From the NCBI GenBank assembly GCA_963815455.1, contig CAWFGO010000001.1, forward strand, positions 384,001 to 448,000: a DNA stretch of 64,000 bases, in the 5' to 3' direction. This DNA comes from an uncultured Verrucomicrobiae bacterium (GTDB lineage: Bacteria; Verrucomicrobiota; Verrucomicrobiia; Chthoniobacterales; UBA10450). The notes beneath the pieces were generated by a model. That model did no database searches. It was not told where the DNA came from and worked only from the letters and a program-made list of their open reading frames with translations. The first letter of the stretch is position 1, and the number at the start of each line of letters is the position of its first letter. Shown here piece after piece: positions 3,262 through 26,938 of the stretch. The position numbers and the translations under genes were made by a program.

Positions 3262-4550
3262 GTTTGCTGTTGCAGGCTGCTGATGATGCTGATGAGCGGC
3301 ATGAAAAGCGCAATCACGATCGTGCCGACCACGAGGGCGAGGAAAACGATCATGATCGGCTCCAGCATGGAGGTGAGCGCAGCCACGGAATTATCCACTT
3401 CGTCGTCGTAGACATCGGCAATTTTCAAGAGCATGTCCGGCAGCCGGCCGGTTTCCTCGCCGACGTCGATCATACTGATGACCATCGGCGGAAATGCGCC
3501 GCTGGCTTCGAGCGGTTGCACAATCGATTCTCCTTCCTTTACGCTGTCGTGCACTTGCGAGATCGCGCTGGCGATTTCGGCGTTACCCGCGGTCGCACGC
3601 GTGATGTTGAGCGCCTGCAGGATCGGCACACCGCTGGTGACCAGCGTGCCCAGCGTGCGCGAGAAACGGGAGATCGCCGTCTTGCGCAGCAGATCGCCAA
3701 AAAGCGGGACCCGCAGTTTGAAACGATCGATCGCCGCTCTTCCGCCCGGTTTGCGGGCGACAAACTTGTAGGCCGCAACCACCACGATGACCAGGCCGAG
3801 AATAATCAGGCCATGATTTTTTACGGCATTGCTCGCACCGATCACGAAAAGCGTGATGGCCGGCAGCGGTTTGTCGCCGAGCATGTCGTGAAAAATGGCC
3901 TCGAACTTCGGCACAATGAAGACGAGCAGGAAAGACAAGATCGCCACCGCCATGATCAAAACGATGATCGGATATACCATTGCCGAAACGACCTTGTTCT
4001 TGATTTTGGTCGCCTTTTCCTGGAACTCGGCCAGCCGGTTGAGAACCACTTCGAGCACGCCGCCCAACTCGCCCGCTCTTACCATGTTGACGTAAAGATC
4101 GTTAAAGATCAGCGGATGCTGGGCAAGAGTGTCGGAAAAAGTGTTCCCGCTTTGAACCGAGTCGGCCAGCTTGTCGATGGTGCTCTTCAAAACCTTGTCG
4201 CGTTCCTGTTTGCTGAGAACATTGAGACCGCGCAAGAGCGGCAGGCCGGAATCGATCAGGGTGGCCAATTGCCGGGTAAAGATCATCAGGAGCTTGGGCT
4301 TGATTTTCTTGCGCTGGAACAGCTTGATCTCCATGCGCGCTCCCCTTGCCCGCGGCGCCCGGGCCGCTTTAGCCGCTTTGGCCATCGTCTTGCCATCCGG
4401 CCCGCCGCCCTTGCCCTCTTCATAAACACTGGTCGGGAAATAACCGGCCTGACGCAGTTGACCGATCGCCTCGTTGGTCGAGCCAGCCTCCACTAATCCG
4501 GTCGACTCCTGCCCGCGCGAATCGAGAGCGACGTAAGTAAAACGCGGCAT
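3258..4550 (-). CDS. pilC: type IV pilus/T2SS inner-membrane platform protein PilC/GspF
   Basis: Start MPRFTYVALD; FTRQLATLIDSGLPLL, GELGGVLE and GEETGRL T2SSF repeats. Confidence 0.93.
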   Translation of the reverse strand: MPRFTYVALDSRGQESTGLVEAGSTNEAIGQLRQAGYFPTSVYEEGKGGGPDGKTMAKAAKAARAPRARGARMEIKLFQRKKIKPKLLMIFTRQLATLIDSGLPLLRGLNVLSKQERDKVLKSTIDKLADSVQSGNTFSDTLAQHPLIFNDLYVNMVRAGELGGVLEVVLNRLAEFQEKATKIKNKVVSAMVYPIIVLIMAVAILSFLLVFIVPKFEAIFHDMLGDKPLPAITLFVIGASNAVKNHGLIILGLVIVVVAAYKFVARKPGGRAAIDRFKLRVPLFGDLLRKTAISRFSRTLGTLVTSGVPILQALNITRATAGNAEIASAISQVHDSVKEGESIVQPLEASGAFPPMVISMIDVGEETGRLPDMLLKIADVYDDEVDNSVAALTSMLEPIMIVFLALVVGTIVIALFMPLISIISSLQQQT

Positions 4551-4564
4551 GGTCGCTACGCTAA

Positions 4565-4690
4565 AGCTCCAAATCCCAAGTTCCAAGTTCCAAAGAAACT
4601 CCAAATCCCAAGCTCCAAACGACAATCAAGCGCGCAGGTTTGGGATTTGGAGCTTGGGAATTCCTTGGAGCTTGGGTTTTGGGATTTGAG
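4565..4690. repeat. inverted array of degenerate heptamers (CCAAGTT/CCAAATC-like)
   Basis: ccaaatcccaagttccaagttccaaag... followed by the complementary tttgggatttggagcttgggaa... Confidence 0.7.
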
Positions 4691-4700
4691 ATTTTTCTCG

Positions 4701-6387
4701 TCACGTGTATTTCAGTACTTCTTCGATCGTAGTATCTCCCGCAAATATGCTGCGCAATCCGTCCTGACGCAGCGTGACCATGCCGAGCTCGACCGCTTTT
4801 TGTTTCAGGGTCACGGTCGGCGCGCGCTCGTTGATCAATTCGCGGATCGGGTCCGTGATCTTGAGCAATTCGTAAATTCCGATGCGGCCTTTGTACCCGG
4901 TGTGATTGCACGCATCGCAACCTTTGCCGTAATGAAATTCCTTTGCCCCGATGTCGCGCCGCGACAGATCGAGTTGCGCGAGCAGCGCTTCGTTCGGCTT
5001 GTATGTGGTGCGACAATTCGGGCAAATCCGGCGGAGCAATCGTTGCCCGAGGACCGCTTCCAGGGTCGAGGAAATGAGGAACGGCTCGACGCCCATGTCG
5101 ATCATACGGGTCACCGCGCCGGGGGCGTCGTTGGTGTGCAACGTGGTAAAAACGAGATGCCCGGTGAGCGACGCCTGAATGGCAATTTGCGCCGTCTCCA
5201 GATCGCGCGTTTCACCCACCATGATGCGGTCCGGGTCTTGTCGCAAAAACGCGCGCAGCACTCGCGCAAAAGTGAGACCGATGCCTTCGTTCACCGGCAC
5301 CTGCACGATGCCCTCCAGATCGTACTCGACCGGTTCTTCCGCGGTGAGCAATTTGGAATCGATCGTGTTGATCTTGCGCAAACAGGAATAAAGCGTCGTC
5401 GTTTTTCCCGAGCCAGTTGGTCCCGGTGGCGATGAAAATACCGTTCGGCCGCTCGATGACCTCGAGAATGTAAGCGTGGATGTAATCGGGCATGCCGAGC
5501 ATTTCGAGATCGAGATTCACCGTCGAACGATCGAGCACTCGCAACACAACGCTTTCGCCGAACTGAGTCGGCAAAGTCGAAACGCGAAGATCGACTCCGC
5601 GCCCGGCGATACTTTTTTGGATGCGCCCATCCTGGGGCAGGCGTCGCTCGGCGATGTTCATGTTCGCCATGACTTTGACTCGCGAGATGACCGGAAGAGC
5701 CAGATGACGCGGCGGCGGCGACATTTCGTAAAGCGCGCCGTCCACGCGATACCGAATTTTAAATTCGTTTTCGAACGGCTCGAAATGAATATCGCTCGCC
5801 CGGTCCTGGATGGCCTGGTACAAAATAAGATCGACAAACCGAATGATCGGGGTTGCGTTGGCCTCGGCTTCAGAAATGGTGGCGCCGTCGCCTTCGCGCA
5901 ATTGCAAGAGTTCGCCCGCTTCGCCGAGCTGCTTGAGGATGTCCTCCATGCTCGCCGTCTCGGTGCCGTAGTACTGTTTGATCCGTTCTTCGATCTGCTC
6001 GGTCGGCGCGATCACAACATCGACATCTTTGCCAAGAGCAAACCGAAGATCTTCCGCCGTGCGCGGATCGAGCGGATCGACCAGCGCGATGCGCAATGTG
6101 TTGCCACTTAGTCCGATCGGCAGAGCGCGATGCAACCGGGCCAGCCCGCTCGGAATCAAATGCAAAATCTCCTGCGCGATTTCTTTGCCGGTAAGATCGA
6201 CAAATTCGGTGCCGAGCGCGTCGGCGATCGTCTGATAAAACCCGTGTTGATCGACGTAACCGCCGTCGATCATTGCCTGCGCGATCGTCTTGCCGTTCAA
6301 GTCCACTTCGTTCAGCACGTCTTCCGCCTGCGACGGCTGCAGCACGTGCTGCTCGACAAAAAGTTCCGCGACCTGTTTGTCGTTCAT
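4701..6387 (-). CDS. pilB: GspE/PilB family ATPase (frameshift near 5420, probably a sequencing error)
   Basis: [17 protein letters not shown]; Walker A split at ATG(P)[23 protein letters not shown]; Cys4 zinc motif. Confidence 0.9.
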
Positions 6388-6392
6388 AACGC

Positions 6393-8094
6393 TTAGCTCG
6401 CGTCTCCGATCGTCGTGGAAATCACTTCTTCGGCGGAAGTGAGTCCGGCCAGAACTTTGCGCACGCCATCTTCGCGCAACGTGCGCATGCCCAGTTCGCG
6501 AGCGCGTTGCCGCAAGTGCAAAGTCGAGTCGCGTTTGTTAATCATGTGCCGGACTTCATCGTCGATGATGAAAATTTCGAAAATGCCCATCCGTCCTTTG
6601 TAACCGGTCTTGCGACATTGGTCGCAGCCGACCGGTTTCATTACTTGCGCGTCTCGGACCTGGCCCTTCTCGATTCGCAGCGCCCGCAGTTCCGTCTCCG
6701 AAAGTTCGCCCGGTTGTTTGCAGTTGGCGCAAAGTCGCCTGACGAGCCGCTGGGCCATGATCGCCCGCACCGACGAGGCGACCAAAAACGGCTGCACGCC
6801 AATGTCGACCAAACGCGCGACCGCGGAAGGCGCGTCGTTTGTGTGCAACGTGCTGAAAACAAGATGTCCGGTCAGGCTCGCGTTGGTGGCGATGCTCGCC
6901 GTCTCCAGATCGCGAATTTCACCGATCATGATGATGTTCGGCGCCTGGCGCAGCATCGATCGCAACGCCGCCGGAAACGTCATCCCGATCTCCGGATTCA
7001 CCTGCACCTGATTGATCCCGGTCATCTGATATTCGACCGGCTCCTCGACGGTGATGATTTTGCGGTCGGGCTTGTTTACGTAATTCAAACAGGCATACAG
7101 CGTGCTCGTCTTTCCCGAACCCGTCGGACCGGTGACCAGCAGAATTCCGTCCGGCAATTTGATCAGGCGCTCGAACGTTTCCTGATCGTCGCTGAAAAAT
7201 CCGAGCTCCGGCAATCCGAGGAGCAAACTCGATTTGTCCAGCAACCGCATCACCACGCTTTCGCCATGGTTGGTCGGGATGGTCGAAACACGCAGGTCGA
7301 GCGGTTTCTTTCTGATCTTGACCTGGATGCGACCGTCCTGCGGCAAACGCTTTTCGGCGATGCTCATCGAGCCGGTCATGATCTTGATGCGGCTGACAAT
7401 GGCCGACTGCAAACGCTTCGGCGGCGCCTGCATTTCCTGAAGAACGCCATCGATGCGAAAACGGACACGGAATTTTTTGTCGAGCGGTTCGAGATGAATG
7501 TCGCTCGCGCCCAAGCGATGGGCTTCGACCAGTAACATCGACACCATTCGAATGATCGGCGCGTCGGTGGCATCGCCCTCGGCCATTTCCGCGCCTTCGG
7601 CGATCTCGAGGCCAAGATCGACATCGTCGCCGATTTTTTGTCGCAGAATATCGGCCGCTTCATCGGCCGTGCCGTAATACTTGATGAGCGCCTCCCGAAT
7701 TTTCTCCGGGCTGCTGCAAACCAGCTCGATTTCGCGCTGGAGCAAAAAACTGAGGCTGTCGATCGTGTCGATGTCCAGCGGATCGCTTACGGCAACGACC
7801 AGCCCGGTCTCGCCGAAAGCGACCGGAAGCACTTTGAATCGGCGCGCGTCTTCCGCGCGGATCTGTTTGATCACGTCCGGCGGAATGACCATGGAGGAGA
7901 TGTCGATCCAATCCATGTGCGCCTGCGCGGCGAGCGAGCGCGAGACATCGGTGTCCGAAACGACGCCGTCCCTGAATCAGAACATCGACAATCTTCTCGC
8001 CGTTCAGACGTTTGCGCGCGCTCTCGATTTGCTTGCGCGTAACGAGTCCCACGTCCTCGAGGACTTTGAGCACGTAATCTTCGTTGTGTTGCAC
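6393..8094 (-). CDS. second GspE/PilB family ATPase (frameshift near 7973)
   Basis: [36 protein letters not shown]-terminus MQHNEDY lies in another frame. Confidence 0.9.
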
Positions 8095-8253: not shown

Positions 8254-10127
8254 TCACTCCACGGTCACGCTTTTGGCCAGGTTGCGCGGTTTATCCACGT
8301 CGCGGCCGAGCTCGACCGCCAGATGGTAGGCGAGAAGCTGAAGCGGAACGACGGTAAGGATCGGGATCAGACAATCGGGCACGTCGGGCAGCATGATGAT
8401 ATCGTTCGCGGTCCCTTTGAGCTGCTTTGCGCCGTTGCCACTGGTGACGGCGATGATCGGGCCTTTGCGCGCTTTGACCTGCTCCATGTTGTTCAGATTT
8501 TTGGAAAAAATGGCGTCGTCCGGCGCGATGAAAACCGAGGGAAGATCGGGTCGGACAAGCGCGATGATGCCGTGCTTGAGCTCCGCGCTGGGATGACCTT
8601 CGGCAAAGAGATAGGTGATCTCTTTCATCTTGAGCGCGCCTTCCAGCGCGATGGGAAAATTGAACTGCCGCCCAAAGAAAAGCATGCCGCTAACATCGGC
8701 ATATTTTTTCGCGATCGCCTTGATGTGGTCGCTCAGCTTGAGCACTTCCTCGATTTGTGCCGGCAACGCGTCGAGCGCACCGATGATTCGGCTTCCTTCC
8801 GCGGTCGAAAGATTGCGCATCCGTCCGAGAAGAAGACCGATGAGCGTGAGAATCGCCAAGCTGCGACGTGAACGATTTGGTGGCCGCGACGCCGATCTCG
8901 GGTCCGGCGTGCATGTAAACGCCGCCATCGCTTTCGCGCGCGATGGTGCTGGCGACGTTATTGCAAATTCCGAGCGTGCGATGTCCTTTGCGCCGGCTCT
9001 CGCGCAATGCGCCGAGCGTATCGGCGGTTTCGCCGCTCTGGCTGATCGCGAAGACGAGCGTGTCGTTCGTCATTGGCGTATTGCGATGGCGAAACTCGCT
9101 CGCGTATTCGACTTCGACTGGAATGTTGGCCAGATGCTCGATGAGATATTCGCCGACCATGCCGGCGTGCAGCGCGGTGCCGCAACCGGTAAGCACGATT
9201 CGACCGACGTCGCGCAATTGCTGCGGCGTCATGTTCAAACCGCCGAGTTTGGCCGTGCATTCCTCCAGATTTAAGCGGCCGCGCATCGCGTCCCGCACCG
9301 AGTTCGGTTGCTCAAAGATTTCCTTGAGCATGTAATGCGGGTAATCGCCTTTCTTGATGTCCTCGGCGCTGAATTCGACTTTGCTGACCTGGCGGTCCCC
9401 GGCCTCGCCGGCGACCGAACTGATTTCGAACTTGCCGCGCTCGACGGCCACCACGTCGAAATCGTTCAGGTAAATGGCGTCGCGCGTGTGGGCGACGATT
9501 GCGCTCACGTCGCTGGCCAGAAAATTTTCGTCTTTGCCCACGCCGAGCACGAGCGGACTGCCACGGCGCGCGCCGACGATAAAATCCGGAATGTCGGCGT
9601 GAACCAGCGCGATTCCGTAAGTGCCGATCACTTGCTTCAACGCCGATCGCACGGCGTTGACCAGGCGCGATTTCTTTTGATCGACATCGACCGTGGTCGC
9701 GCACGAGTCGTGTAAAGTTTGCCGATCAGATGGGCGAGAACTTCCGTATCGGTCTCCGAGCGAAAATTCGTGTCGCCGTCTTGAATCAGTTGTTCCTTGA
9801 GCGCCTGATAATTTTCAATCACGCCATTGTGGACGAGGGCGAGCTTGCCGCTGGCATCGAAATGCGGATGCGCATTTTCGTCGGTGACCTTGCCGTGCGT
9901 GGCCCAGCGAGTGTGACTGATTCCAAACGAACCCGGCGGCGGCTTGGCTGCGATCAGTTTGGCGAGCGAGGCGATCCTCCCGGCGCATTTGCGCGTCTCG
10001 ATCTGGTGATGCCGTTGACAATCGCGATGCCGGCCGAATCGTAGCCGCGATATTCGAGGCGGCGCAAGCCATCGAGCAAAATGGGCGCGGCCTCCGCGCG
10101 CCCGACATAACCGACGATTCCGCACAT
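8254..10127 (-). CDS. glmS: glutamine--fructose-6-phosphate transaminase (several frameshifts)
   Basis: MCGIVGY...[40 protein letters not shown] across four frame segments. Confidence 0.95.
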
Positions 10128-10363
10128 ATTTTTGATGTAGCGGCGGGCGAGTCGCCCGCGATCCCGCCATTGTAACGCCGCCACGTCTAGTCGCAAGATT
10201 CGCGCCCGGGGAGAAGGTTTTTCCTAACCGCTCCGGAGATACGCCTCCCAACTCGCCGCGCGCAAAAAAGTTGCCCGAATGCGCAGACGCTGAGTTAATA
10301 CCATTGTGAAAACGCAGGAACTGTTGTGAGCCTCAGCCGACGGATCGACAACGGCGCGAATCT

Positions 10364-14185: not shown

Positions 14186-15200
14186 TTAAAGCCCGAGCTT
14201 CTTTTCGATCGCCTTCACCCGCTCGAAAAACTCGCCCAGCTTGCGGACCCAGGCGATCTGTTGCTTTGCATCGCGAAGCGGAACCGTGGGGGTGGCCCAC
14301 CAAATCCCGCCGTTGAGACTCTTGGAGACTCCGCTTTGGGCGCCGATCATCGTGCCATCGCCAATTTCGATGTGGCCAATGATGCCGGCCTGCCCGCCGA
14401 TCATCACTCCCCGCCCGATCCGGACACTGCCGGCCACGCCGACTTGCGCGGCCACAACCGAGTTTTTCCCGATAACGACGTTGTGGGCAATCTGGACGAG
14501 ATTGTCGATCTTGGCTCCCTCTTGAATCCACGTCCGCCCAAAACGCGCCCGGTCGATGGTCGTATTCGCGCCGATCTCGACGTCATCGTCGATTTGGACA
14601 ATGCCAATCTGCGGCACCTTCTTTTGCTGGCCTTTCTCCACCTCAAAACCGAAGCCGTCGGCTCCGATCACAGCCCCGCTGTGAATGATGACACGAGCGC
14701 CGATGCGAGTGCGTTCGCGAATCGTGACGCGTGGATAAATCAGACACTCCGCCCCGATCGTGGTCTCGTGGCCAATGTATGCTCCCGCCCCGATCACCGT
14801 GCGGTCGCCGACACTGCACCCCCGGCTCGATGACCGCGTATGGCTGGATGGAAACGCGATCTCCCAGTTTGGCGCCGGGATCGACAACGGCGGTGGGATG
14901 AATCCCGGCGGCCAACTTGATCGGCTTCGGAGCGAACTTAAGCACGACTTGCTCGAAAGCTTTGGTGGGATTAGCGACGCGAATTTGTGAGGCGACGATT
15001 TTTTCCTCGAAATCAGCCGGAACGAACGCCGCCGAGGCACGAGTGTTGCGAAACGCGGCGAGATAGCGCGGATTTCCGTAAAACGTGATTTCTCCGGTGG
15101 TTGCCTCGGCCAGGGAAGCCGCCCCGTCGATTTTTTGGGCGGGATCGCCGGCTAACTCGCCGCCGGACATCTTCGCCAGTTCCTGAAGGGTGAAAGTCAC
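14186..15200 (-). CDS. lpxD: UDP-3-O-acyl-glucosamine N-acyltransferase (frameshift near 14820)
   Basis: Hexapeptide repeats; [29 protein letters not shown]. Confidence 0.93.
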
Positions 15201-15324: not shown

Positions 15325-16293
15325 TCATTTTTTCACACTGGCCCGGACAACATCGAGCTGACCGGCCGAACCGAGCTTCTCGTTCTTGTGAGCAATGAAA
15401 TTCGCGTATTCCTCGACAAAGGTTTTTCCCGGGGGCCGGAAATCAAATTGCTCGGGATGATCGCGAAAGAATTCGCGATGGACCCGTGTCCAGACGAGCC
15501 GCCCATCGGTGTCGATGTTCACCTTGGTCACGCCCAGTTTTGCGGCGGGCAAATATTCCTCCTCATTCACGCCGCGGGCGGATGGATCGAGCTTGCCGCC
15601 GGCAGCGTTGATCCGCTCCACTTCCGATTTCGGAACGCTGGACGATCCATGCATGACGATGGGTGTGGGGGGCAACCCTGCTTGTTTTATCTTGTCGCGG
15701 ATACCCTCGATAACGTTGAAATGCAGCGATTGCTGGCCCTTGAACTTGTAGGCGCCGTGACTGGTCCCAATGGCCGCAGCAAGGGAATCGCATTTTGTTT
15801 GCTTGATGAACTCGACCGCCTCATCCGGATTGGTCAAACAGGCGTGACCTTCATCGACCTTGATGTCCTCTTCCACGCCGCCGAGCCTGCCCAGCTCCGC
15901 TTCCACGCTGATTCCCTTGGCGTGGGCTTTTTCGACGACGCGCTTGGTGATGGCTACGTTCTCCTCGAAAGCCTCGTGGCTGGCATCGATCATGACCGAA
16001 CTGTAAAAACCCGACGCGATGCAATCGTAGCACGCCTCTTCGTCGCCATGATCGAGATGCACGGCAAAGATCGCTTCGGGAAACATCCCTTCCGCGGTTC
16101 GAATAATCGCCTCGAGCATGCGCTTGTCGGCATACTTTCGCGCGCCTTTGGAGAGTTGGATGATGAAAGGCGCCTTGCTTTGCACAGCGCCGCGGAACAA
16201 GCCCAGGCATTGTTCCATGTTATTAATGTTATAGGCGCCAACGGCGAATTTGCCGTAGGCAACTTTGTAGAGTTGAGCAGTAGTGACAATCAT
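15325..16293 (-). CDS. fba: fructose-bisphosphate aldolase class II
   Basis: GAYNINN, VHLDHG, SVMIDAS, VEAELG, GTSHGAYK, VMHGSS, KVNIDTD. Confidence 0.95.
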   Translation of the reverse strand: MIVTTAQLYKVAYGKFAVGAYNINNMEQCLGLFRGAVQSKAPFIIQLSKGARKYADKRMLEAIIRTAEGMFPEAIFAVHLDHGDEEACYDCIASGFYSSVMIDASHEAFEENVAITKRVVEKAHAKGISVEAELGRLGGVEEDIKVDEGHACLTNPDEAVEFIKQTKCDSLAAAIGTSHGAYKFKGQQSLHFNVIEGIRDKIKQAGLPPTPIVMHGSSSVPKSEVERINAAGGKLDPSARGVNEEEYLPAAKLGVTKVNIDTDGRLVWTRVHREFFRDHPEQFDFRPPGKTFVEEYANFIAHKNEKLGSAGQLDVVRASVKK

Positions 16294-16384: not shown

Positions 16385-18403
16385 TCAGTGCCCGTTCGAT
16401 TTCGTTGGCAGCATGATGCTCACCAACGTGCCGTGAGAGGTCGAATCGATATCCACCCTGCCGTTGTGATCGAAAATGGTGCGCTTGACGATGGGCAGGC
16501 CAAGTCCCATTCCGCGCGTTTTGGTTGTGCAAAAGGGGGAGAAAATTTTTTCCTTTAATTCGGGCGCGATTCCTTTGCCGTTGTCGCGAACCGTCACCAC
16601 AACGCCGGTAGAACGTTTCCCGTGACGAACAGATTTTGCCGAAAGCGTGATGCGCGCTTTGGTTTGACCCGAGAGCGCCTCGGCCGCGTTGGCCACCAGA
16701 TGCGCAAAAACTTCCGCCAAAGCCGTCTCGTCACCGAGCACTTTGGGAAGATCGCCCGGCAGCGATGTCTCCACCGAGACGTCGCCGTTCATATGGAACC
16801 GCTCCCGCGCGATCTCGACCCCTTTTTGCAGCGGGCGGCGGACATCGATCGACTTGAAGATGAGATCCGGCGGATGGGCAAAGTTATCGATTTGCGCGAT
16901 GATGTTGTCGAGGCGATCGACCTCCTTGACCACGATTTCGTTGAATTCCTTTCGAAAATCGGCGTCGTCGAAACGCTCGGGCAGAAGTTGGGCGAAAGTC
17001 TTGATGGCGACGAGCGGATTGCGAATTTCGTGCGACATACTGGCCGCCAGATCGGTCCAAAATGCGGCCCGATCGACCAACGATTGTTTCTCGCGCACAC
17101 TTTGTTCGGCTGTCAGATCGTTTACGATTGCGACAACGCCAAGCGATGTGCCATTGTCGCCGAGTCGGCGTGTTTCCACCGAAACCGACCGCCGGGTGGC
17201 ACCGTCCATCCATTGCTGCGACAGAATCGGGGCGTTGGATTCAAGCGCTTCACGAACGATGCCGGCTAGTCTGCCCCCGGCAGTTTCAACCGGTTTGTTC
17301 AGGACAGTCGCCTTGGAAATACCGAGGATTTGTTCGGCCGTGGGATTGAACCACCGGATAATTCCATCCACGTCGGTGGCCACGATGCCCGGCGGGATCG
17401 CTTCCAGCAGCGTTTCGGCCAGAGTTTTTTGCAGCGCCGCCTCCTCGTAAAGCAAGGCATTTTCCAAGACGGTCGACACATGCTCGGCCAGCATCATCAG
17501 GCCTTCGAGATCGTGGGTATCGAAATTCTCGCCGGTCACGCGATGGCCGAAAAACATCCAGCCTCGGACTCGTTCCGGGTTGCGCAGGTAGAGGGGCACG
17601 ATCACTTCCGCGCCAAACGAATCGAGAGCGCGCCGCATCACCGCGCGCTCTTTGGGATCGGCTGTTTGCGCGAGGTTGACCCGAGAAATCAAATGGGCAT
17701 GCCGTTCGAACCAGCGTGCAAGCCCATCGCGCTCTCCAAACTCCAATTCGTGGGTTTCCGGAAAACAGCGGAGTCCGGCCAGGAGCCGGTAACGATTGCT
17801 CTGGCGAGTCTTGAGAAAATCCCCACCCGGGTTACGCCAGCGGCATCCGCGACGCCTTCTATGACGCTGGCAAGGAGCGCTTCAACATTTTCGAATCGAC
17901 GAAACACGCGGGGGAACCGCAATAGGGAAAGGCTCGCAGGTGCGACCGAACGACCGGCAACAATTTCGACGGGACGCGGCCGGCATCGGAATAGCTGGAG
18001 CAATCGTCGATCTTTCCCGAAGATCGCGATTCTCCTGCAATACTTGGAGATGATCGAACGCACGCGCGGCCAACGCCTGAAACGGACGACGTTCCAGTTC
18101 CAGATCCTCAGCCGCGTAAATCCCCGATTGCTCGGCCTCCCGCAGCGGATCCGAACGGGCCGCGCCGAGCGCAATGATCAAGACCTCCGGCGACTCACGT
18201 TGAATCTGCTCGATCAGATCGCGGCAATCCCTGGCGCGCAGATCGACAAAGAGCAGGGCCGGCCCTGCCTGCTGCAAAACCGCATCCAGCCGATCGGCAT
18301 TCGCCACGTGACGCACCTGGGACATCGCCCGCAAAAACGCCTTGATTCGCCGAACGAGGTCGGGGTCCTGAGTATATAAAACGCAAATCGGCGGGGACAT
18401 CAT
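16385..18403 (-). CDS. cytoplasmic histidine kinase: degenerate REC, GAF, PAS, HisKA, HATPase (frameshifts 17750-17990)
   Basis: SHEIRNPL H-box, DNGKG and GMGLGL G-boxes; PAS FNPTAEQILG; REC-like N-terminus lacking the acidic DD pocket. Confidence 0.85.
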
Positions 18404-20909
18404 GCCGCCGCCACCTCTCGATCAAACCGGACCAGCGGAAACAGAATGTGAAACGCTGTCCCCTTTTGCAGTTCGCTTTCCACCTCAACCTGGCCTCCAT
18501 GTTCCTGAATGATCCCATGCACCACAGACAATCCCAGCCCGGTGCCGTAATCTTTCGTGGTAAAAAATGGATCGAACACGTGCGGGATATCCTCGCTGCG
18601 AATTCCTTCGCCGTTGTCGCGAATGGAAATCCGCAGAGGCCTCGAAGCCTTCGCCATTGGACTGGCTCATGGCGGGCGTCCAGACCTCGCCCGTCCGGAT
18701 TTCCGTGCGCACACTCAGTTCGCCGCCGCTTTTCATCGCATCCATCGCGTTAATAAAGAAATTCAGAAACACCTGCTCCAATTGGTCCGGATCGGCCCGT
18801 ATTGTATCAACATTTGCGTCCCAAGAGCGAGTTAATTTGATCGATTTTTGGTGTAATCGATGCCCCACGAGCTTGAGGGATTTTTCGAGGATCTCGTGCA
18901 CATGCATCGGTTTGAGCACCGGCTTGGTGGGCCGGGCGAACCGAAGCAGCTGGTTCACCAGCGAATCGATCCGGTCGATCTCATGCCCGATCAGATTCGA
19001 AAACGTTTCCCGAAAATCCGAATCCTGGTAACGCTCGGGCAGTAATTGGGCGAAAGTCTTGATCGAGACCAGCGGGTTCTTGATCTCGTGCGCCATGCCG
19101 GCGGAGAGGGTGCCGAGACTGGCCAGCCGGTCGCTTCTTCGAATCTGTAATTCGAGCCTCTTGAGTGAAGTAATGTCCGTCAGCACCATCAACGCGCCGA
19201 GGATCTTGTCGATCTTGTCCATGGAAAATGGAAGTGCTGGCCCGGACCACCACGCCGTCGTTTCCGGATTGCAGGACCAGCTCGCTATTTACCTGGCTTT
19301 CGTCGTCAACCAATGTCTTGCGCAACGGACCACGCAGCGCCTCCGGCAGCTCGTTGAGTGAGCGGTCGATCATGTCCTGCGAATTAAGTCCGGTGATCTG
19401 TCCCGCTTCGTTGTTAAAAACAGTGATTCGTTCGTCTGTTCCTACCGCAATCACGCCGCTGGTCAGATGTTCCAGCAGCGTTTCGTTGTAAATCTTTGCG
19501 TTCTGCACTTCCGTAAACAGCTCCGCATTTTCCAGCGCCACAGCGAGCTGGCCACACAAAACCTGCAATGCATTCTGCTCCACCATGCCGTAAGCGCGTC
19601 CCGATTTTCGCGCTCCCAGCAGCATCACACCCGCCAGTTGGTCGCGAGCAAAAATCCCCATCGCCAGGCCGATCTGGAGAGAATCTAGCTGCCGCATCAC
19701 AAGCTGGAGCTGCGGGGTGGGTCGCACCCGGTGTAGTTCTTCCAACACGATCGGCTCCCGATCCAACAGAAGTTGGGCGATGGTCGCCTGGTCGCGCGTC
19801 AGCTCCAGATGCTCACGCACTCCTGCGTCGGCAAAGGGATATTGCTGGGAAAATCCATGTCGATCCGGCAGAAGAATGAACACGCGATCGGTGCCAACCG
19901 CATCGGCCACCGTTTTGGCAAATCGATCGAGCAAATCCCGCAGGGTCGTGACCGAACTCAATATCTTGGCCGCTTTGCTGACCGTTGCCCGGAAATCGAG
20001 CCGGTGCGAGCTAATAAAGAGCCGTTCGGCCAGGCGCTGGGAAACGCCGCGGGCCGGGGCCATGGCGATGGCAATCACGATTGCCGCCGCCACATGCGCA
20101 ATTGACCGGGCATTGCCGAACGAATGCAGAGCCGCCACCACCAGCCACCAAACCACTGCGTAAAGCGCCAGAAGATACACCGCGAGCAGCCCGTAAGAGA
20201 ATAACCGCCGCAGGAGGACGCCGACATCCATGATTTTTCGCGTAGCTATGCCGTAGGCGATGATCAGGCCAAAGAGGACAATTCGAAAGGGCGCGAACTG
20301 GGCTATTTCTGAACGATCGATAAACAGGCCCAGGGCGAAGGACAAGAGAGTCGTTCCGATCACGACACCAACGCCAATTAAGATAAATGCGAGTTCCGCC
20401 CGCCTGCCTGCCGTGGCCTTGCTCAAATCGCGGGCATAGAGAGACACGACGGCTATCCCGGCCAGAGCAATGTACGCGAAATAGAGAATGGATTGCTTGC
20501 CATACATCGGCACCACCGCTCCCGTCGCGGGCGACAGGTCGACTCCTTTGAGAAAGAATTTGGTTTGGCAGAACGCAATCATTAGACCTAATGCGAACAA
20601 CCAGGCCCATGATCTCCGAACGATCTCGCCCCAGGATTGGTCGCCATGTTTTACGGACAGTCGAAGAAAATTGAAGAACGTAAGGACCACGGCGCCCATA
20701 ACGGAGGCCTGCCGGATGTAAAACGCCGCGAGTTCGACCGTAGTGGCCTGGAATGTCAGGCAGAGGCTGCCCAGCCATCCGTCGATGGCAATAGATAGAA
20801 GCAGAAAACACTGATTTGGTTTGCGCCTGGGGTTTGCATAAAACACCGCGAGGCCCAGGCCAAGCTGGATAACGATCGCGATGATAATTGATAGGACAGG
20901 GCTTTTCAT
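18400..20909 (-). CDS. multi-TM (about 7-9 helices) GAF-PAS sensor histidine kinase (frameshifts near 19225 and 18640)
   Basis: Hydrophobic N-terminal ~300 aa; LQVLCGQLAVALENAEL GAF end; AHEIKNPL; DPFFTTK..GTGLGL. Confidence 0.88.
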
Positions 20910-22150
20910 TCGCCTTGCACGCGAGTGACAACCATCGAACTGGCGCTTCCGCCCAGGCCACGGACATTGATCACGATGCAATTCACCCGGGATCTTCGCG
21001 CCCGCTGCGGAACAAAATCCAAGTCGCACTTCGGATCGGCGAATTCATAATTCGCCGTCGGCGGCACCAAGTGGTCCCGGATCGCCAGTACAGACGCCGC
21101 AACCTGAAACGGTCCGCCGGCCGCCAGCGCGTTTCCCGTTATTCCCTTAATCGAGCTGACTGGAATCGAATACGCGCGCTCGCGAAACACCTGCTTAATC
21201 GTGTCTACTTCTACGGCATCCAGCACGGGGTGACCCGGTCCGTAGGCCGAGATGTAATCAACGTCTTCGATGGTTCGATGAGAATTTGCCAATGCCTGCT
21301 TCATTGATTGTTCCAAGCCCGAAGCCGGTCGGCTAGGATCGACATCGCGTTGCTTGCCGTAACCACCGATTTCCGCGTAAATGCGGACGCCGCGCGCTCG
21401 GGCGCGTTCCAGATTCTCAATCACAAAAATTCCCGCGCCTTCCGAGATGACGCCGGAATCCCGGTCCAAATCGAAAGGCCTGTTCGCCTTTTCCGGTTCG
21501 CCATTCCGGCGCGAGCTCAGCCCGCTGCTGGTGAAAGAAGCCATCGAGAGCGGCGTAATCGGAGCATCCGTGCCGCCGGCGATCGCGACCTCAACCCGGC
21601 CCTGGCGGATCATCTCTGCTGCGTCAGCGACCGCATCCAGGCCTGAGGGACATGCCGAGGAGATCGTCGCCGCATGCGCGCAAGCCCCGAGCCGGTCGGC
21701 TATTACGTTTGCAGCTCCCTGGGGCAGAGACGCGGAGCAAGTGGTTGCCGGCGCACGATCCGGTCCGTGTTCGCTTACGATGTGAAGAGCGCGCTCCAGT
21801 ACATCCATCGAATTCATGCTCACCCCGACAATCACCGGCGTCGGACTCGGCAACTCAAGATTCTCGATATCCAGCGCCGCATCGTCGAGCGCCAGCATCG
21901 TCGCCGCAAATGCCAGCTGCGTATGCCTTGCCATTCGCTTCGGCTTCAGCTCAGGAGCAATGTAATCCAGCGGGTCGAAATTTTTCACTTCGCCAGCGAT
22001 CCGGCTCTTGAAATCGGTCGCGTCGAACAAGGTGATCGGGCCGATGCCGCTGCGGCCGGCGAGAATCGATTCCCAAAATGCCTCAATCCCAATCCCGTTC
22101 GGGGCCACGATTCCCATACCGGTAATGACGGCTCGATTGCGCGTACTCAT
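20906..22150 (-). CDS. FabF-like beta-ketoacyl synthase with non-canonical active site (C167, Y303, N340)
   Basis: AVITGMG, GRSGIGPITLFD, SSACPSG, RPFD..R.SGVISEGAG; YISAYG replaces INAHG and ITGNAL replaces MTGHLL. Confidence 0.9.
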   Translation of the reverse strand: MSTRNRAVITGMGIVAPNGIGIEAFWESILAGRSGIGPITLFDATDFKSRIAGEVKNFDPLDYIAPELKPKRMARHTQLAFAATMLALDDAALDIENLELPSPTPVIVGVSMNSMDVLERALHIVSEHGPDRAPATTCSASLPQGAANVIADRLGACAHAATISSACPSGLDAVADAAEMIRQGRVEVAIAGGTDAPITPLSMASFTSSGLSSRRNGEPEKANRPFDLDRDSGVISEGAGIFVIENLERARARGVRIYAEIGGYGKQRDVDPSRPASGLEQSMKQALANSHRTIEDVDYISAYGPGHPVLDAVEVDTIKQVFRERAYSIPVSSIKGITGNALAAGGPFQVAASVLAIRDHLVPPTANYEFADPKCDLDFVPQRARRSRVNCIVINVRGLGGSASSMVVTRVQGE

Positions 22151-22469
22151 GATGTCGATCCAAAAAAGACGCGCGAAAGACCAGATGCCAAATCAGCTTT
22201 CAGAAGAGATTCTAAGAAACGAGTCTCCTTGCCAAATGGCTTCGAGTCACCGCGCATTCTAGACGCTACATTAAATCCAGTCATTATACGTTTCGTCCTA
22301 TTTCAAGCCTGTTTTATCCAACCAAATCTGCCACTTATTCACAAATCGCAGCTTGCGCGCCAATCAAAACCAATTCAGCTTCCCGCCGCATAGATTATGG
22401 CTCCTGAGGCTTTTGTCACCTACCTCCTTCCGCGGCACGCTGTTAGCTTCTACCCCCGCTGCTACCCTC

Positions 22470-23621
22470 ATGTCCGCTCCGCCTGAACCACCCGAAATCC
22501 TTGTTATCGACGACGAAGTCGGTCCGCGCGAAAGCCTGCGGATGCTGCTGAAGCCGGACTACCAGGTTCGCACCGCCGATTGCGTCGAAACAGGCCTTAA
22601 ACTTCTGAAGGAAAAGAACCCGGATACGATTGTCATGGACATCCGAATGCCCGGTATGAGCGGTATCGATGGACTGCGCAAAATCCGCGAGATCGATCCC
22701 CATCTTTCTGTGATCATGCTCACCGGTTTCGGCGCCCTCGAGACGGCCCGGGAAGCGCTTCGGTTGGGCGCTAACGATTACATCAGCAAACCCTTCGATG
22801 CAGGCGAAATGCGCGACGTCATCGATCGCAATGTCGAGCGCACTCGGGTCCACCGCACCGCCGAACACACCGCCGGCGAAATCCAGGAACTCAATAACCG
22901 CCTTCTCAAGGAGCTGGCCCAAAAGGAGCGCCTTGCCTCTCTCGGTCAGGCTTCGGCGGAATTCGTCCACGATCTGGGCAATCCGCTGACCATTGTTTGG
23001 GGCTACGTGCAGCTCTTGGCCAAGAAGCTCGAAAAAACTGACAACGGTGGCGCCGCCGAGAACACCGATTCGATTCGGGAGCTAAACATTATCGAAGAGA
23101 ACGTGCGCCTTTGCCGGGAGCTGCTCACCATGTGGCAAAGCTACGGCAGCGTTGAAGCCTCCCCGCGCAAGCCAATCTCCGTCTCCGAAATTGTCGGCGA
23201 CGTTCTCAAAGGGCTCACCCCGGTCGCAGCCCAAAGCGGCATCGATCTAAAATCCGATGTCTGTACCGATCCCTGCACGCTGCACGGCGACACGGTTCAA
23301 ATCAAGCGAGCGATCCAAAACGTCATCATCAACGCGCTCCAGGCATCCGCCGAGGAAAAAGGACCGGTTTCGGTCACTTGTGTGCGGAAAGATTTCTACG
23401 TCGATATCGTCATTGAAGATACCGGCGCCGGAATAGACCCGGTCCAAATGAACAAGATTTTCGACCCGTATTTTACGACGAAACAGGGCAAGAGCGGAAC
23501 CGGTCTGGGGCTTTATATCACAAAGAAGGTCGTCGAGGACCATAATGGCTCCATCAAGGTGGACAGCACATCCGCGGCGGGAACCGTTTTCACAATTCGC
23601 CTTCCGCTGCTGAACGTTTAG
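22470..23621 (+). CDS. hybrid response regulator-histidine kinase (REC-HisKA-HATPase)
   Basis: LVIDDE, MDIRMPGMSG, YISKPF; FVHDLGNPL; DPYFTTK..GTGLGL. Confidence 0.92.
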   Translation: MSAPPEPPEILVIDDEVGPRESLRMLLKPDYQVRTADCVETGLKLLKEKNPDTIVMDIRMPGMSGIDGLRKIREIDPHLSVIMLTGFGALETAREALRLGANDYISKPFDAGEMRDVIDRNVERTRVHRTAEHTAGEIQELNNRLLKELAQKERLASLGQASAEFVHDLGNPLTIVWGYVQLLAKKLEKTDNGGAAENTDSIRELNIIEENVRLCRELLTMWQSYGSVEASPRKPISVSEIVGDVLKGLTPVAAQSGIDLKSDVCTDPCTLHGDTVQIKRAIQNVIINALQASAEEKGPVSVTCVRKDFYVDIVIEDTGAGIDPVQMNKIFDPYFTTKQGKSGTGLGLYITKKVVEDHNGSIKVDSTSAAGTVFTIRLPLLNV

Positions 23622-23731
23622 TTGCAGCGGCAGTCTCCCACCGTCGCACTTTTGGGAGCAAGGGCTCACCCCTAGCAGTCAGGATCGCGGTTTCACTTGT
23701 CAGTCCTCGTGCGTTTGGTTTCCCTGAACGG

Positions 23732-26008
23732 GTGCAACCCACTTATCAGGTCGCTCCAATCTTTCTGATCCGCCTGCCCGGGTTGTCCTTCGACGCAATC
23801 GAGCAGCTGGCCACGCCTGAAACCATCAAAGCTGCCCGTGCGCTTGCTGTGCACAATGAGCGAGACGCGGACTCCATGGCGCGCCTTCTCGAAACCCTTG
23901 AGAAAGAACTTGGCCCGGCACGGACGGCCCTTTGGCAATCGAGCCGAACTGTGTTGGCGCCCTACCTCATTTTCGCGGTCGGCGGTGTTCGCCAGCTGCT
24001 CTCCCACCTTCTCGACGACCAAGCCGATTACAGCCGGCTGACGCGCCGTAACTCCCGGGCCGGAGATCGGGAACGGCATCTCCTTCTTTATCTTCAGAGA
24101 ATCGCAGCCAAGAACGACACGTTTAGCGAATTTGGACCAACCGGTTGGGGCAAGATCGATTCGTTTAATGCGTCGCCTGCGGCGATGAACGCGATCAAGA
24201 TCGACATCCGGCCCGGGATCGCGAGGCGCAAAGCATTCTTGGAACGCTGGACCGCCCATTCCGTAGCTGCGGCGATGAATGCCGACCCGGCGGTGCGATC
24301 GGAAAGCTCTCCCCGGCTTCATCCGGGCGTCCGAATCGAAGGCGATCAACTTCTCTTTGCCGATACTGGCGAAACAATAAAGCTCGACGCCAGGACGAGC
24401 GAAATTCTTGCCCGATGCAACGGATCGACTCCAGCCCATGCAATTGGCGTCGATCTGAATGTGCTCGACGACTTGGACAAACGAAAAATGATTCTTTGGG
24501 AAGTCGAGGTCCCGGCTCTCGATCCACATCCTTTCGACACGCTCGTCGCCGATGTCCAAAATTGGCGGGAAAGCCCGGTGCGAGAAAAGTGGCTCGGGCA
24601 ACTTCAACCAATTGCCGCGTTGCCAGAAAGTATTATCCGGGCAAGCGGGCCGGCTGCCCGCTTGGAAATCATGAATGAATCGGCGCAACGCTTGCAGGGC
24701 ATTGGCGTTGCGCACACGACATCGTCCAACCGGTATCTGTATTCGGCGAAAAATCCGATTGGCGAAGAATGTTTCCGCGAATGCGGTTTCTCTGTTAGTC
24801 AGGACTTGATCGACGAAGTTGCGGTAGAGGCCGCTCCCTGGATCGATTTTTGGCGCGATTCCTACGCCTTCATTGCCGGTCGCGTCGCTGCCGATCTGCG
24901 CCGCGTTTTGGAAAAAAATCGAAGCACTGCCATGCCGCTGCCCGCCTTTCTGAAATTATGCGAAGCAGCAAAACGTCCCCTCACCGGTCCGGGCCTGATT
25001 GCTCCCGCCGCGATCGCGTTCCAGGAAATCAAAACCGCCTTTCGCCAACGAATGCGCCCTCAGGCCGATGCCGCCGAGTACACGCTTACACCAGCCGATT
25101 GCCACATTGTGCGCGATAATTTTGAATACGAAAAATTCGATGAATACACTTATCCGTCGGCCGATTTGCAACTCGCCGCAAAATCAACGGAAGCGGTAAG
25201 CCGCGGCGAATATCAATGGGTTCTGGCCGAGCTGCATCCTCCCGTTGCTCTCCTGCAACATTGCATGTACTGGGCTTGCCCCGATAAACCCGCTCTTACT
25301 CGCGCCCTCCTCCGCACAACCTGCCACCGGCCAAATTTTTATTTTGGATTTTTCGCCACCGATTTTACTGCCCACACAGCAATCCGTTTTTTCGACGCAG
25401 TTCCAGGGGTCACAAACTTTGTCGCGCCTCAACGGGGGAATCCGGCGTGGAAAACTGTTTCGCCCTCGCAAGCGGAAGTTTATGTCGATGCACCTAGTGG
25501 CGACGTTTGTCTGCGGAAAATCGGAGCCGGTGAATATCTCGGTTCGTTCTCCCGCAACTGGATTATCTCGCTCGGTTTTCATCCGTTCCAATTCGGGATG
25601 TCGCCGCATACGCCGCGGTTGCGCTGTGGGAACGTAATCGTGCAACGCCGGACGTGGACCGTGACTCTGGATGAACTCGGCGCCGGCAATTTCAAGGGCA
25701 TTTCGCGCGACCTGGTTCTCGCGATTGAGCGCCTACGCGCCCAGCGCGATTTGCCACGTTACATTTACATTCGCCCGACCGAGCAGGCACTTCGCCGCAG
25801 CGGCGCGGAAGGCCGCGACAAGGACACCAAACCGGTGTTTGTCGATCTTGAGAGCTACCTATTCCTGGAAATTTTCCAACGCTGGCTGACCAAATCCAGC
25901 GAGATCGAAGTCACCGAAATGTTGCCCGATCCGGATCATTTGTTGTGGAAGGAACCGGATGGAAGACGCACCTTCGAGCTGCGAACACTCATCGTCCCGC
26001 GCTCATGA
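23732..26008 (+). CDS. short LanB / peptide aminoacyl-tRNA ligase (PEARL)-like protein, glutamylation domain only
   Basis: YLQRIAAKNDTFSEFGP, PSADLQL, WVLAELH, HTPRL..GNVIVQRRTW, KPVFVD, EMLPDPDHLLW...GRRTFELR; 758 aa with no elimination domain. Confidence 0.8.
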   Translation: MQPTYQVAPIFLIRLPGLSFDAIEQLATPETIKAARALAVHNERDADSMARLLETLEKELGPARTALWQSSRTVLAPYLIFAVGGVRQLLSHLLDDQADYSRLTRRNSRAGDRERHLLLYLQRIAAKNDTFSEFGPTGWGKIDSFNASPAAMNAIKIDIRPGIARRKAFLERWTAHSVAAAMNADPAVRSESSPRLHPGVRIEGDQLLFADTGETIKLDARTSEILARCNGSTPAHAIGVDLNVLDDLDKRKMILWEVEVPALDPHPFDTLVADVQNWRESPVREKWLGQLQPIAALPESIIRASGPAARLEIMNESAQRLQGIGVAHTTSSNRYLYSAKNPIGEECFRECGFSVSQDLIDEVAVEAAPWIDFWRDSYAFIAGRVAADLRRVLEKNRSTAMPLPAFLKLCEAAKRPLTGPGLIAPAAIAFQEIKTAFRQRMRPQADAAEYTLTPADCHIVRDNFEYEKFDEYTYPSADLQLAAKSTEAVSRGEYQWVLAELHPPVALLQHCMYWACPDKPALTRALLRTTCHRPNFYFGFFATDFTAHTAIRFFDAVPGVTNFVAPQRGNPAWKTVSPSQAEVYVDAPSGDVCLRKIGAGEYLGSFSRNWIISLGFHPFQFGMSPHTPRLRCGNVIVQRRTWTVTLDELGAGNFKGISRDLVLAIERLRAQRDLPRYIYIRPTEQALRRSGAEGRDKDTKPVFVDLESYLFLEIFQRWLTKSSEIEVTEMLPDPDHLLWKEPDGRRTFELRTLIVPRS

Positions 26009-26030
26009 AAATAATCGCCATCACTGACTC

Positions 26031-26160
26031 CGGGGAGCACACGCGCCCTCGCGTGTCCTTTTTGGCGCCCCCGCCAAAAAGATTTGTGCACGTGATCACG
26101 GAAAAAGTTCGCGCTGGCGAGAGCGCCATCGCCGGCACTCGAGGGCGCGTGCTCTCCCCG
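26031..26160. repeat. palindromic element (CGGGGAG...CTCCCCG, family C)
   Basis: cggggagcacacgcgccctcgcgtg / cactcgagggcgcgtgctctccccg; a half copy lies near 8222-8240. Confidence 0.8.
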
Positions 26161-26162
26161 AA

Positions 26163-26938
26163 ATGAAGATCATCGCCATCGCAAATCAAAAAGGCGGCGT
26201 CGGCAAAACGACCACGGCCGTCAATCTCGGGTGCGCCCTGGCCGAGCTGGGCCAGCGCATTCTGCTGGTCGATCTCGATCCGCAGGCGAACGCCACCAGC
26301 TCGTTTGGCTTGCAGGGATTGGACGGGACGAGCCTTTACGAACCGCTTCTTGGCGAGGCATCCATCATCGACAAAATTGTGCCGACGCGATGTGAACGCT
26401 TGTTCATCGTGCCGGCCGATCTCGATCTTGCCGGCGCCGAAATCGAGATCGCGCGCATGGAAAATCATCTCACCCGCCTGGCCGAAACGCTGAGGCCGCT
26501 GCGCGCCGACGATACCTTCGATTTCGTTCTGCTCGATTGCCCGCCGTCGTTAGGCATCTTAATGACCAACGCCCTCGCCGCCGCCGACGAACTTCTCACG
26601 CCGATTCAATGCGAGTATTTCGCGCTCGAAGGACTTGTCAAAATCGTCCGCGTAGTCGAGCAGATCCGCGACTCCGGCGCGAACGATCGGATCGAAATCG
26701 GCGGCATTGTCATGACCATGTTCGACAGCCGCACCAATCTGAGCGCACAGGTCGTCGCCGAAGTGCGACAGCATTTCGGTCCGCGTGTTTATGCAACCGT
26801 AATTCCACGCACCGTTCGCCTGAGTGAAGCGCCCAGCTTCGGTCAATCCGTTCTCGAATATGCCCCAGTGGAACCGGCGCCGCCGCCTATCGCGCCCTGG
26901 CCAAAGAGTTCCTAAAACGACACGCCACTTCTGTGTAG
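26163..26938 (+). CDS. parA: ParA/Soj family ATPase (frameshift near 26866)
   Basis: ANQKGGVGKTTT, DLDPQANAT, DCPPSLG, PIQCEYFALEG; C-terminus AYRALAKEFLKRHATSV* in another frame. Confidence 0.92.

Follow-up and report, generated by a model that had tools for sequence, protein, structure and literature searches.

A variant ketosynthase heads a sensor-kinase operon

The window analysed here, a 64,000-nucleotide stretch of contig CAWFGO010000001.1 from an uncultured Verrucomicrobiae bacterium, carries on its minus strand an operon that begins with the gene for a FabF-fold ketosynthase (KS) variant of 414 amino acids (20906..22150) and continues with two histidine kinases, kinase 1 (18400..20909) and kinase 2 (16385..18403). 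ATGA overlaps join the KS gene to kinase 1 and kinase 1 to kinase 2, the stop codon of the first gene in each pair sharing bases with the start of the next. Sequence comparison supports the view that this KS is a variant outside the chain-elongating function of FabF, and a role in lipid signalling appears to be the best reading of the system.

The KS reading frame matches PF00109 and PF02801, and its structure model (pLDDT 75) shows the FabF (thiolase) fold, with a TM-score of 0.90 to Bacillus subtilis FabF (4LS8) at 35-36% identity; by sequence and by fold, its best matches are all KAS II or KS-alpha proteins. In an alignment to Escherichia coli FabF, the active Cys167 (TGT, 21650-21652) corresponds to Cys163, and Tyr303 (TAC, 21242-21244) and Asn340 (AAC, 21131-21133) take the places of His303 and His340, a state written C/Y/N below; the enzyme thus fails the Cys-His-His (C/H/H) triad test. 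NVRGLGG (residues 395-401) replaces the FabF loop NSFGFGG, GPGH stands where FabF has GTST, and a Leu occupies the position of the gating Phe400. Scores stay below every NCBIfam ketosynthase cut-off shown, including those of TIGR03150 (362 bits, cut-off 494) and PRK07314 (343 bits, cut-off 387). Because C/Y/N, together with NVRG[LIM]GG, recurs in all 120 best of 7701 matches (the query and 119 sequences at 70-79% identity), the substitutions are not a read error. Among the best matches listed, the named relatives are Chthoniobacterales/Spartobacteria. Elsewhere the genome encodes three ordinary C/H/H FabF-type genes (contigs C2 and C3), and its two matches to the acyl carrier protein (ACP) family PF00550 both lie on C3; a Pfam scan of the block and the genome-wide PF00550 search found no second KS or ACP in the KS block. 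A preliminary description of this DNA had reported the C/Y/N residues with their codons, the altered loop, both gene overlaps and the lack of a nearby ACP, and had placed the enzyme outside elongating FabFs. These points held up, the last of them as judged by scores, triad and motifs, and the close homologs, which it had proposed to check for ordinary C/H/H FabF in unrelated contexts, are instead C/Y/N and kinase-linked.

Kinase 1, the candidate receptor, combines nine predicted transmembrane (TM) segments with GAF, PAS, HisKA and HATPase domains; kinase 2 carries an atypical REC domain before the same four domains. In the window, kinase 1 is split over three frames by two frameshifts, and kinase 2 contains indels and a scrambled stretch with a stop near 17750-17960. 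We attribute the kinase frameshifts to assembly errors, because relatives carry intact open reading frames of 847 and 668 amino acids, respectively, and the window's lpxD gene (14186-15200) is frameshifted as well; together with a split glmS-like gene (8254-10251), lpxD points to a high indel rate in this assembly.

Nine hydrophobic segments recur in the kinase-1 sequences, and PF16927 (HisKA_7TM, a seven-transmembrane (7TM) family) matched 16 of 22 of them. TIGR02916 (PrsK) matched 2 of 15 N-terminal parts, and a relative's intact kinase 1 failed PrsK membership with 76 bits against a cut-off of 300. In a predicted model of a relative's kinase 1 (pLDDT 85), residues 1-228 align with G-protein-coupled receptor (GPCR) folds over 202-222 residues (Z 13-15.6, root-mean-square deviation about 4 Å); the likeness of the first seven helices is that of a shared helical fold and says nothing on function. 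The structure matches listed included no solved bacterial sensor domain resembling this 7TM part, and the PF16927 paper (PMC5847659) names no ligand in the part considered. As for the REC domain of kinase 2, the preliminary label "pseudo-REC" is right in that the usual acidic pair is absent, but the Asp at the phospho-acceptor position is kept in 22 of 22 aligned sequences. For the kinases, the 25 highest NCBIfam rows included no PhcS-, RpfC- or CqsS-type family. A predicted complex of the KS with kinase-1 GAF and kinase-2 REC-GAF scored 0.01 against a mark of 0.32 and was not used either way.

The KS-kinase linkage is conserved across distant lineages

Within the window's own family, a soil family of Chthoniobacterales, the KS variant (55-73% identity) occurs in 29 of 36 genomes, and none was found at that identity in 24 genomes of other families. 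Kinase 1 directly follows the KS in 30/30 family loci, own genome counted, and a further REC-containing kinase (REC-kinase) is encoded divergently in 27/30, the remaining three stopping at contig edges. The family gene order is parA, a PEARL-like gene and REC-kinase, then KS, kinase 1, kinase 2, fba and lpxD. The unit therefore extends past 16385..22150, the limits set in the preliminary description, into a divergent operon at 22470-26915. Counts, alignment and promoter tallies for the family take in the unpublished genomes G003 and G008, and G015 is in the denominator; the conclusions are independent of them.

A profile search of 301 genomes of the phylum revealed a second tier in another class, Kiritimatiellia where named, comprising 36 loci from 34 genomes. 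Kinase 1 is present in all 36, and kinase 2 is above threshold in 31, four of the misses being contig ends. A divergent FadL/OmpP1/TodX porin accompanies 29 of these loci, a sigma-54 activator 17, and at least one modifying enzyme 24 (flavin adenine dinucleotide (FAD) oxidase 14, class I methyltransferase 8, O-methyltransferase 3, B12 radical S-adenosylmethionine (SAM) enzyme 3). Searching with the kinase-1 N-terminus, for which 40 of the matches were retrieved as loci, added cassettes with C/W/x KSs, cassettes in which an ICMT-type methyltransferase stands in front of S/H/H or C/H/H KSs, and cassettes with coenzyme A (CoA)-ligase or nucleotidyltransferase neighbours. A metagenome scan seeded with a distant KS representative returned mostly canonical FabF and served as a control: three loci (L173/L174 and L166) hold the cassette with an intact C/H/H KS, and the remaining 77 of 80, nearly all canonical FabF, show no match to the 7TM kinase or FadL. 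Kinase relatives of L173/L174 are named Aerophobetes, and only Aerophobetes-like loci end in a REC-HD-GYP protein. A "FadL" match in L173/L174 (26-28 bits) was dropped, as it resembles a PorV-type protein. Four unrelated genomes searched with an Aerophobetes-like kinase 1 gave no match. A plasmid search gave three Manganitrophus records with a distant kinase, with no KS beside it in the one examined, and no LuxD-methyltransferase (see below).

Carriers include the Chthoniobacterales family, Kiritimatiellia, Opitutales-like and Aerophobetes-like lineages, and the linkage spans two classes and the Aerophobetes-like lineage with differing flanks and gene orders. KS and kinase genes overlap by 4 nt in 37 of 79 linked loci and lie within -10 to +20 nt of each other in 60. 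The proposal that a C/Y/N clade is tied to multi-TM kinases is borne out as far as the linkage goes (30/30 family and 36/36 distant loci), but C/Y/N is not the defining state, for the same cassette also contains C/W/x, C/N/H, S/H/H and intact C/H/H enzymes.

Kinase 2 varies in one further family, f19, where the gene (about 600 amino acids) lacks a kinase core at L268, L269, L272, L274-L277, L279 and L281. A gene with an aminoglycoside-adenylyltransferase-like domain adjoins it at the two loci scanned (L274 and L277), and in L274 a carbamoyltransferase gene is inserted between the two kinases.

The nucleophile is kept while the histidine positions vary

We compared 124 KS rows, 79 kinase-linked and 45 unlinked, the latter being hand-picked controls. 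The linked enzymes divide into C/H/N (28), C/Y/N (18), C/W/N (7), S/H/H (7), C/N/H (4), C/H/H (4), C/W/T (4), C/W/S (3), C/H/C (2), C/W/I (1) and C/H/I (1). A nucleophile is present in all 79, as Cys in 72 and as Ser in 7, while residues 303 and 340 occur in 10 combinations. The seven S/H/H enzymes presumably resemble Ser-type decarboxylases, and two of the four C/H/H enzymes exceed the TIGR03150 cut-off. Among 58 cluster representatives with the clade signature, 57 have Cys and 30 are C/H/N. The 68 linked KSs without the H/H pair form one clade (FastTree 99; SH-aLRT 100 for 31 of them among 61 rows), of which 37 members have Tyr, Trp or Asn at residue 303; Tyr303 is confined to the window's family and nests within the C/H/N clade. 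A single origin of all linked KSs was neither rejected (p-AU 0.76) nor shown. One C/W-type KS (L296, G279:C186) has an internal TAG and still precedes kinase 1.

Conservation in the clade is uneven. Cys (100%), the Asp265 equivalent (95%), Lys335 (94%) and the Arg68/Lys69 patch (85/91% K/R) persist, as do Asp311 and Glu314; changed relative to FabF are T305P, T307H/D, F229G, R206G, E349Q and F398H/R, with Phe400 lost and loop 2 four residues shorter. Thr305 and Thr307 of FabF have a role in malonyl chemistry. In FabF the basic patch docks ACP, Asp265 takes part in gating and the oxyanion hole is built from backbone amides (PMC7138838); given these residue roles, acylation could survive the clade's changes, whereas malonyl chemistry should not. 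His307 was considered as a relocated catalytic His and rejected as a general solution: it is invariant in the 120 closest of 7701 matches, but is Asp in 44% of the clade. An H333N mutant of FabB is reportedly active; a literature search for it gave no paper with that term among those listed. Across 29 loci, in what is a weak test, KS distances correlate best with those of the TM domain of kinase 1 (r 0.63, partial 0.46) and least with those of the kinase-2 REC domain (0.20).

A second enzyme occupies the position before kinase 1

Eight genomes encode, immediately in front of a homologous kinase 1, a fusion of a LuxD-like thioesterase (PF02273, E 1e-24 to 1e-28) with a SAM methyltransferase. 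Its Ser/Asp/His residues, which we take to be the LuxD triad, and the SAM GxG motif are invariant in 10/10 sequences. Five of the eight loci were viewed over 17-20 kb and contain kinase 2, FadL and REC-kinase with no KS, and in a FastTree phylogeny with long branches their kinases cluster with those linked to a KS. Of 251 genomes of the class, 7 were found to have the fusion; it was found in neither the window's own genome nor any of 8 genomes of its family. These arrangements suggest that KS and LuxD-methyltransferase are alternative occupants of one cassette slot. Two further genomes, G232 (one contig, 100% complete) and G083 (99%), keep kinase 1, a kinase-2-like gene and REC-kinase with no variant KS genome-wide; such kinases are comparable to orphan receptors.

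The LuxD-methyltransferase family at large (P0393-P0512) has at least 205 proteins, from Omnitrophota, Opitutales and Verrucomicrobia where named, and many members carry a polyketide cyclase/START (PF03364) or PilZ domain in addition. In the kinase tree, L097 is wrongly labelled "LuxD-MT", owing to a false match on its methyltransferase (31 bits).

A divergent operon lies behind a sigma-54 promoter

On the plus strand, the divergent operon of the window begins with a REC-HisKA-HATPase hybrid kinase of PhcR/LvrB-like architecture (22470..23621), the REC-kinase of the cassette. It is followed by a PEARL-like Lant_dehydr_N protein of 758 amino acids (23732..26008), which matches PF04738 and, weakly, structure 6EC7, and which takes the variable modifying-enzyme position in the window's family only. 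We rejected it as a core part, with full-length matches confined to that family (3/301 genomes); as speculation, it could amidate an acyl product. In this family the divergent block closes with the gene for a ParA/Soj-like ATPase (26163..26915, plus strand), whose membership in the system is uncertain.

The intergenic region contains, by consensus match, a sigma-54 -24/-12 promoter facing the divergent operon (22432..22448, plus strand), a sigma-54-like GG-N10-GC element that faces the KS operon or is part of an activator site (22347..22363, minus strand) and a sigma-70-like promoter site facing the KS operon (22256..22284, minus strand; 9/12 matches), kept in many family loci. Two duplicate loci were dropped from the counts, and related loci are not independent. 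At 9/13, 32 of 33 family loci have the divergent-facing site, where 5.3 would be expected; at 10/13, it is seen in 13 of the 34 other loci, against 1.2 expected. The KS-facing element is seen in 20 of 33 family loci (1.4 expected) and 3 of the 34 others (1.3 expected). Before FadL in S/H/H and LuxD cassettes, 2 of 12 loci have a sigma-54 site at 10/13 and mostly none is seen. A conserved repeated box of the TGTGAATAA-type (22314..22343, strand unassigned), about 100 bp upstream of the divergent sigma-54 site, is a candidate activator site. The TGTGAATAA-type 9-mer at 22335-22343 is present in most family loci, with 27 such boxes genome-wide, and fits a DnaA-box consensus. Beside an operon ending in parA, it could be a cell-cycle tie or an activator site; as a mark of oriC it was rejected, GC skew showing no switch there.

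Proposed function of the ketosynthase

The comparative evidence leans to a synthase over a sensor. That the KS makes a signal of some kind seems to us probable; that it does so by offloading acyl-ACP, as signal synthase of a quorum-sensing-like circuit, is our leading reading, though as a proposition evenly balanced. In such a circuit, the KS would dock housekeeping acyl-ACP and take the acyl chain onto Cys167. With the malonyl-decarboxylation site lost, the chain would pass instead to water, an alcohol or an amine, and the product may then be modified by an enzyme of the cassette: a methyltransferase, FAD oxidase or CoA ligase, or the PEARL-like ligase in the window's family. The hydrophobic product would cross the envelope, with FadL where present, and act on kinase 1 by binding its GPCR-like 7TM domain. 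Phosphate could then pass by way of kinase 1, kinase 2 and REC-kinase to the sigma-54 activator that drives the divergent operon; the domain content and the promoter of this last step are established at the level of sequence, and the flow would be as proposed.

Several comparative observations argue for such a synthase. The nucleophile is kept while positions 303 and 340 vary, and features suited to transacylation are retained while the malonyl/pantetheine side is rebuilt. Replacement in the slot by LuxD-methyltransferase, the KS-less kinases of G232 and G083, and linkage to FadL and modifying enzymes point the same way, as may the tracking of KS distances by the kinase-1 TM domain and the control metagenome loci, where canonical FabF lacks such a kinase or FadL.

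A number of findings weigh against it. The clade as a whole shares no catalytic base (Asp replaces His307 in 44%, and the window's family has Arg in place of His397), which leaves the release chemistry without a clear residue. At L278 (G064, 3717-6968), an intact LuxD-methyltransferase precedes kinase 1 and, in a divergent layout, a full-length degenerate KS (S/Q/H, Lys335 lost) precedes kinase 2 and the sigma-54 activator; this KS fits a non-catalytic role and speaks against a simple slot swap. The distance correlation with kinase-1 TM may stem from the physical adjacency of the coding DNA, and the KS-facing sigma-54 site, expected under autoinduction, is enriched only in the window's family. 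In the window's genome (90% complete), there is no match to FadL and no clear orthologue of the cassette sigma-54 activator (best 35%), and no methyltransferase was found in the window's block. The signalling case is thinner for the window's own lineage than for the wider cassette.

The L278 arrangement, in which a degenerate KS stays beside kinase 2 although a separate synthase exists, would suit an acyl-sensing subunit instead, one that binds or takes an acyl group from acyl-ACP or a fatty acid, contacts kinase 1 or 2 and reports lipid status to sigma-54 genes such as fadL, with no exported product. The tight translational coupling described above, the position of the KS directly before kinase 2 in L166 and the many tolerated triad states, including loss of Cys or of both His, agree with such a subunit; FadL is classically a fatty-acid uptake channel, and enzyme-kinase contact has a precedent in RpfF and the REC domain of RpfC (PMC9864630). 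Kinases 1 and 2, however, persist without a variant KS in G232, G083 and the LuxD-methyltransferase cassettes, an apparently catalytically complete two-domain enzyme occupies the same slot, and KS divergence does not follow the kinase-2 REC domain. We hold a sensing subunit to be unlikely on balance, and the same doubtful standing attaches to its covalent form, in which acylation of Cys167 from the acyl-ACP pool or an imported fatty acid would switch the GPCR-like 7TM/REC-like kinase pair, other lineages plugging in the LuxD-methyltransferase synthase to give phylum-wide mix-and-match lipid signalling.

A signal synthase could also act by condensation, coupling two acyl units head-to-head as in PpyS/OleA or by use of a beta-keto acid. 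The resulting signal would be a pyrone, a resorcinol or a ketone, diversified by the changes in the triad. The commonest linked state, C/H/N (28/79; 30/58 representatives), is the triad of FabH-type enzymes and PpyS (C129/H281/N310; PMC4578411), and intact C/H/H forms occur in the cassette (4/79, two of them above the TIGR03150 cut-off). The O- and ICMT-type methyltransferases and FAD oxidases would suit hydroxy-pyrone or phenolic products. BpsA/BpsB offer an analogy here. Yet 37 of 68 clade members carry Tyr, Trp or Asn at position 303, the window KS has no His at either site, a column scan of the clade turned up no obvious candidate for a newly gained, invariant Glu corresponding to E105 of PpyS, where the partner subunit supplies a Glu as catalytic base, and the scaffold is KAS II rather than FabH-derived, so that we consider condensation rather improbable. 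An ordinary or vestigial FabF paralogue kept beside the kinases by inherited gene order, for which the family-wide synteny of the whole region including fba and lpxD and the internal stop of the G279 copy could speak, is largely refuted and highly improbable given linkage across two classes and the Aerophobetes-like lineage despite different flanks and gene orders, near-invariant clade-specific residues and the ordinary FabFs already in the genome.

Comparison with known signalling systems

With FabF/KAS II (E. coli; B. subtilis 4LS5/4LS8; TIGR03150), the window KS shares the thiolase fold, the Cys nucleophile, Lys335, Asp265 and part of the ACP-docking patch, but it differs in Tyr/Asn for His303/His340, in its altered GTST, NSFGFGG, Arg206, Phe229 and loop 2, and in its setting, fixed in a kinase operon without ACP or fab neighbours. 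Unlike a chain-length factor, KS-Q or Ser-type decarboxylase, it retains Cys in a block without a partner KS or ACP. Being thiolase-fold by Pfam, it does not belong to the PhcB, RpfF or CqsA families. A parallel in logic is the phc system of Ralstonia (PhcB, PhcS, PhcR), with an acyl-derived signal (methyl 3-hydroxymyristate/3-hydroxypalmitate, 3-OH-MAME/PAME), a synthase gene before a membrane kinase and a REC-kinase hybrid (PMC8578825); the LuxD-methyltransferase form of the cassette would also yield a fatty methyl ester, but the cassette differs in its KS synthase, HisKA_7TM-GAF-PAS receptor, second kinase, sigma-54 output and FadL. In Xanthomonas, RpfF, a fatty-acid-metabolism fold that offloads acyl-ACP, makes the diffusible signal factor read by the multi-TM kinase RpfC, whose REC domain it binds (PMC9864630), but RpfF is a crotonase and the Rpf output is HD-GYP/cyclic di-GMP.

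Stand-alone ketosynthases that draw signals from fatty-acid intermediates are known from PpyS/PluR and DarABC/PauR of Photorhabdus (PMC4578411, PMC13220807). The preliminary description had invoked PpyS in proposing lipid-signal synthesis and sensing; a lipid-signal role does appear to be the best reading, but PpyS is reduced to an analogy, because it is a FabH-derived C/H/N enzyme with Glu105 read by a LuxR solo (PMC4578411), whereas the present enzyme has a KAS II scaffold and C/Y/N and is linked to a membrane kinase. The PpyS/OleA triad is absent from the window KS and present in 28 of 79 linked relatives. Kinase 1 shares its 7TM, GAF and kinase architecture with PrsK (TIGR02916) and HisKA_7TM (PF16927), but lies far under the PrsK cut-off, has an extra PAS in most cases and is coupled to an acyl-handling enzyme. 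Taken by sequence, the system seems to stand apart from the FabF, PpyS and PrsK families and to fall under the synthase-plus-kinase kind of signalling. FadL, for its part, mediates uptake of long-chain acyl-homoserine lactones (PMC9938287).

No published report of a quorum-sensing system of ketosynthase, histidine kinase and FadL was found in a search of largely open-access literature, nor any report of such a system in Chthoniobacterales, Kiritimatiellia, Opitutales-like or Aerophobetes-like lineages, and a 2026 quorum-sensing review (PMC13220807) does not mention Verrucomicrobia in the part considered. Should the synthase reading hold, KS-kinase lipid signalling would be a way for bacterial cells to signal to one another that has not been described before, carried by Verrucomicrobiota of soil and water; it would add a new family of autoinducer synthases, built on KAS II, and offer the first lead to a ligand of the GPCR-like HisKA_7TM kinase domain, which is uncharacterised. 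With its KS variants and LuxD-methyltransferase, the interchangeable slot lends itself to direct tests of the idea, and the naturally occurring series C/H/H, S/H/H, C/H/N, C/W/x and C/Y/N is a ready set for studies of condensing-enzyme repurposing.

Variation at individual loci

On a 32-kb contig of the window's genome, a second, heavily frameshifted copy of the parA-to-lpxD block (G000:C7:19400-30200, L026; about 75-85% protein likeness in frame) is a candidate second strain, contaminant or paralogue; two variant KSs each also occur in G005, G167 and G290. The gene after kinase 2 encodes a class II aldolase in the window (15325-16293) and a class I aldolase in some relatives (L001, L004 and L005), a non-orthologous swap in place. 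In the divergent operon of L110-L112, a FeeM-like N-acyl amino acid synthase-aminotransferase fusion and PlsY are encoded downstream of the FAD oxidase. Sites resembling the sigma-54 element mark two candidate regulon members elsewhere in the window's genome, both on the minus strand: an apparent exopolysaccharide sugar-transferase gene (site at G000:C2:585086, 5' of the gene) and a gene for a PAS-type protein (G000:C2:674027).

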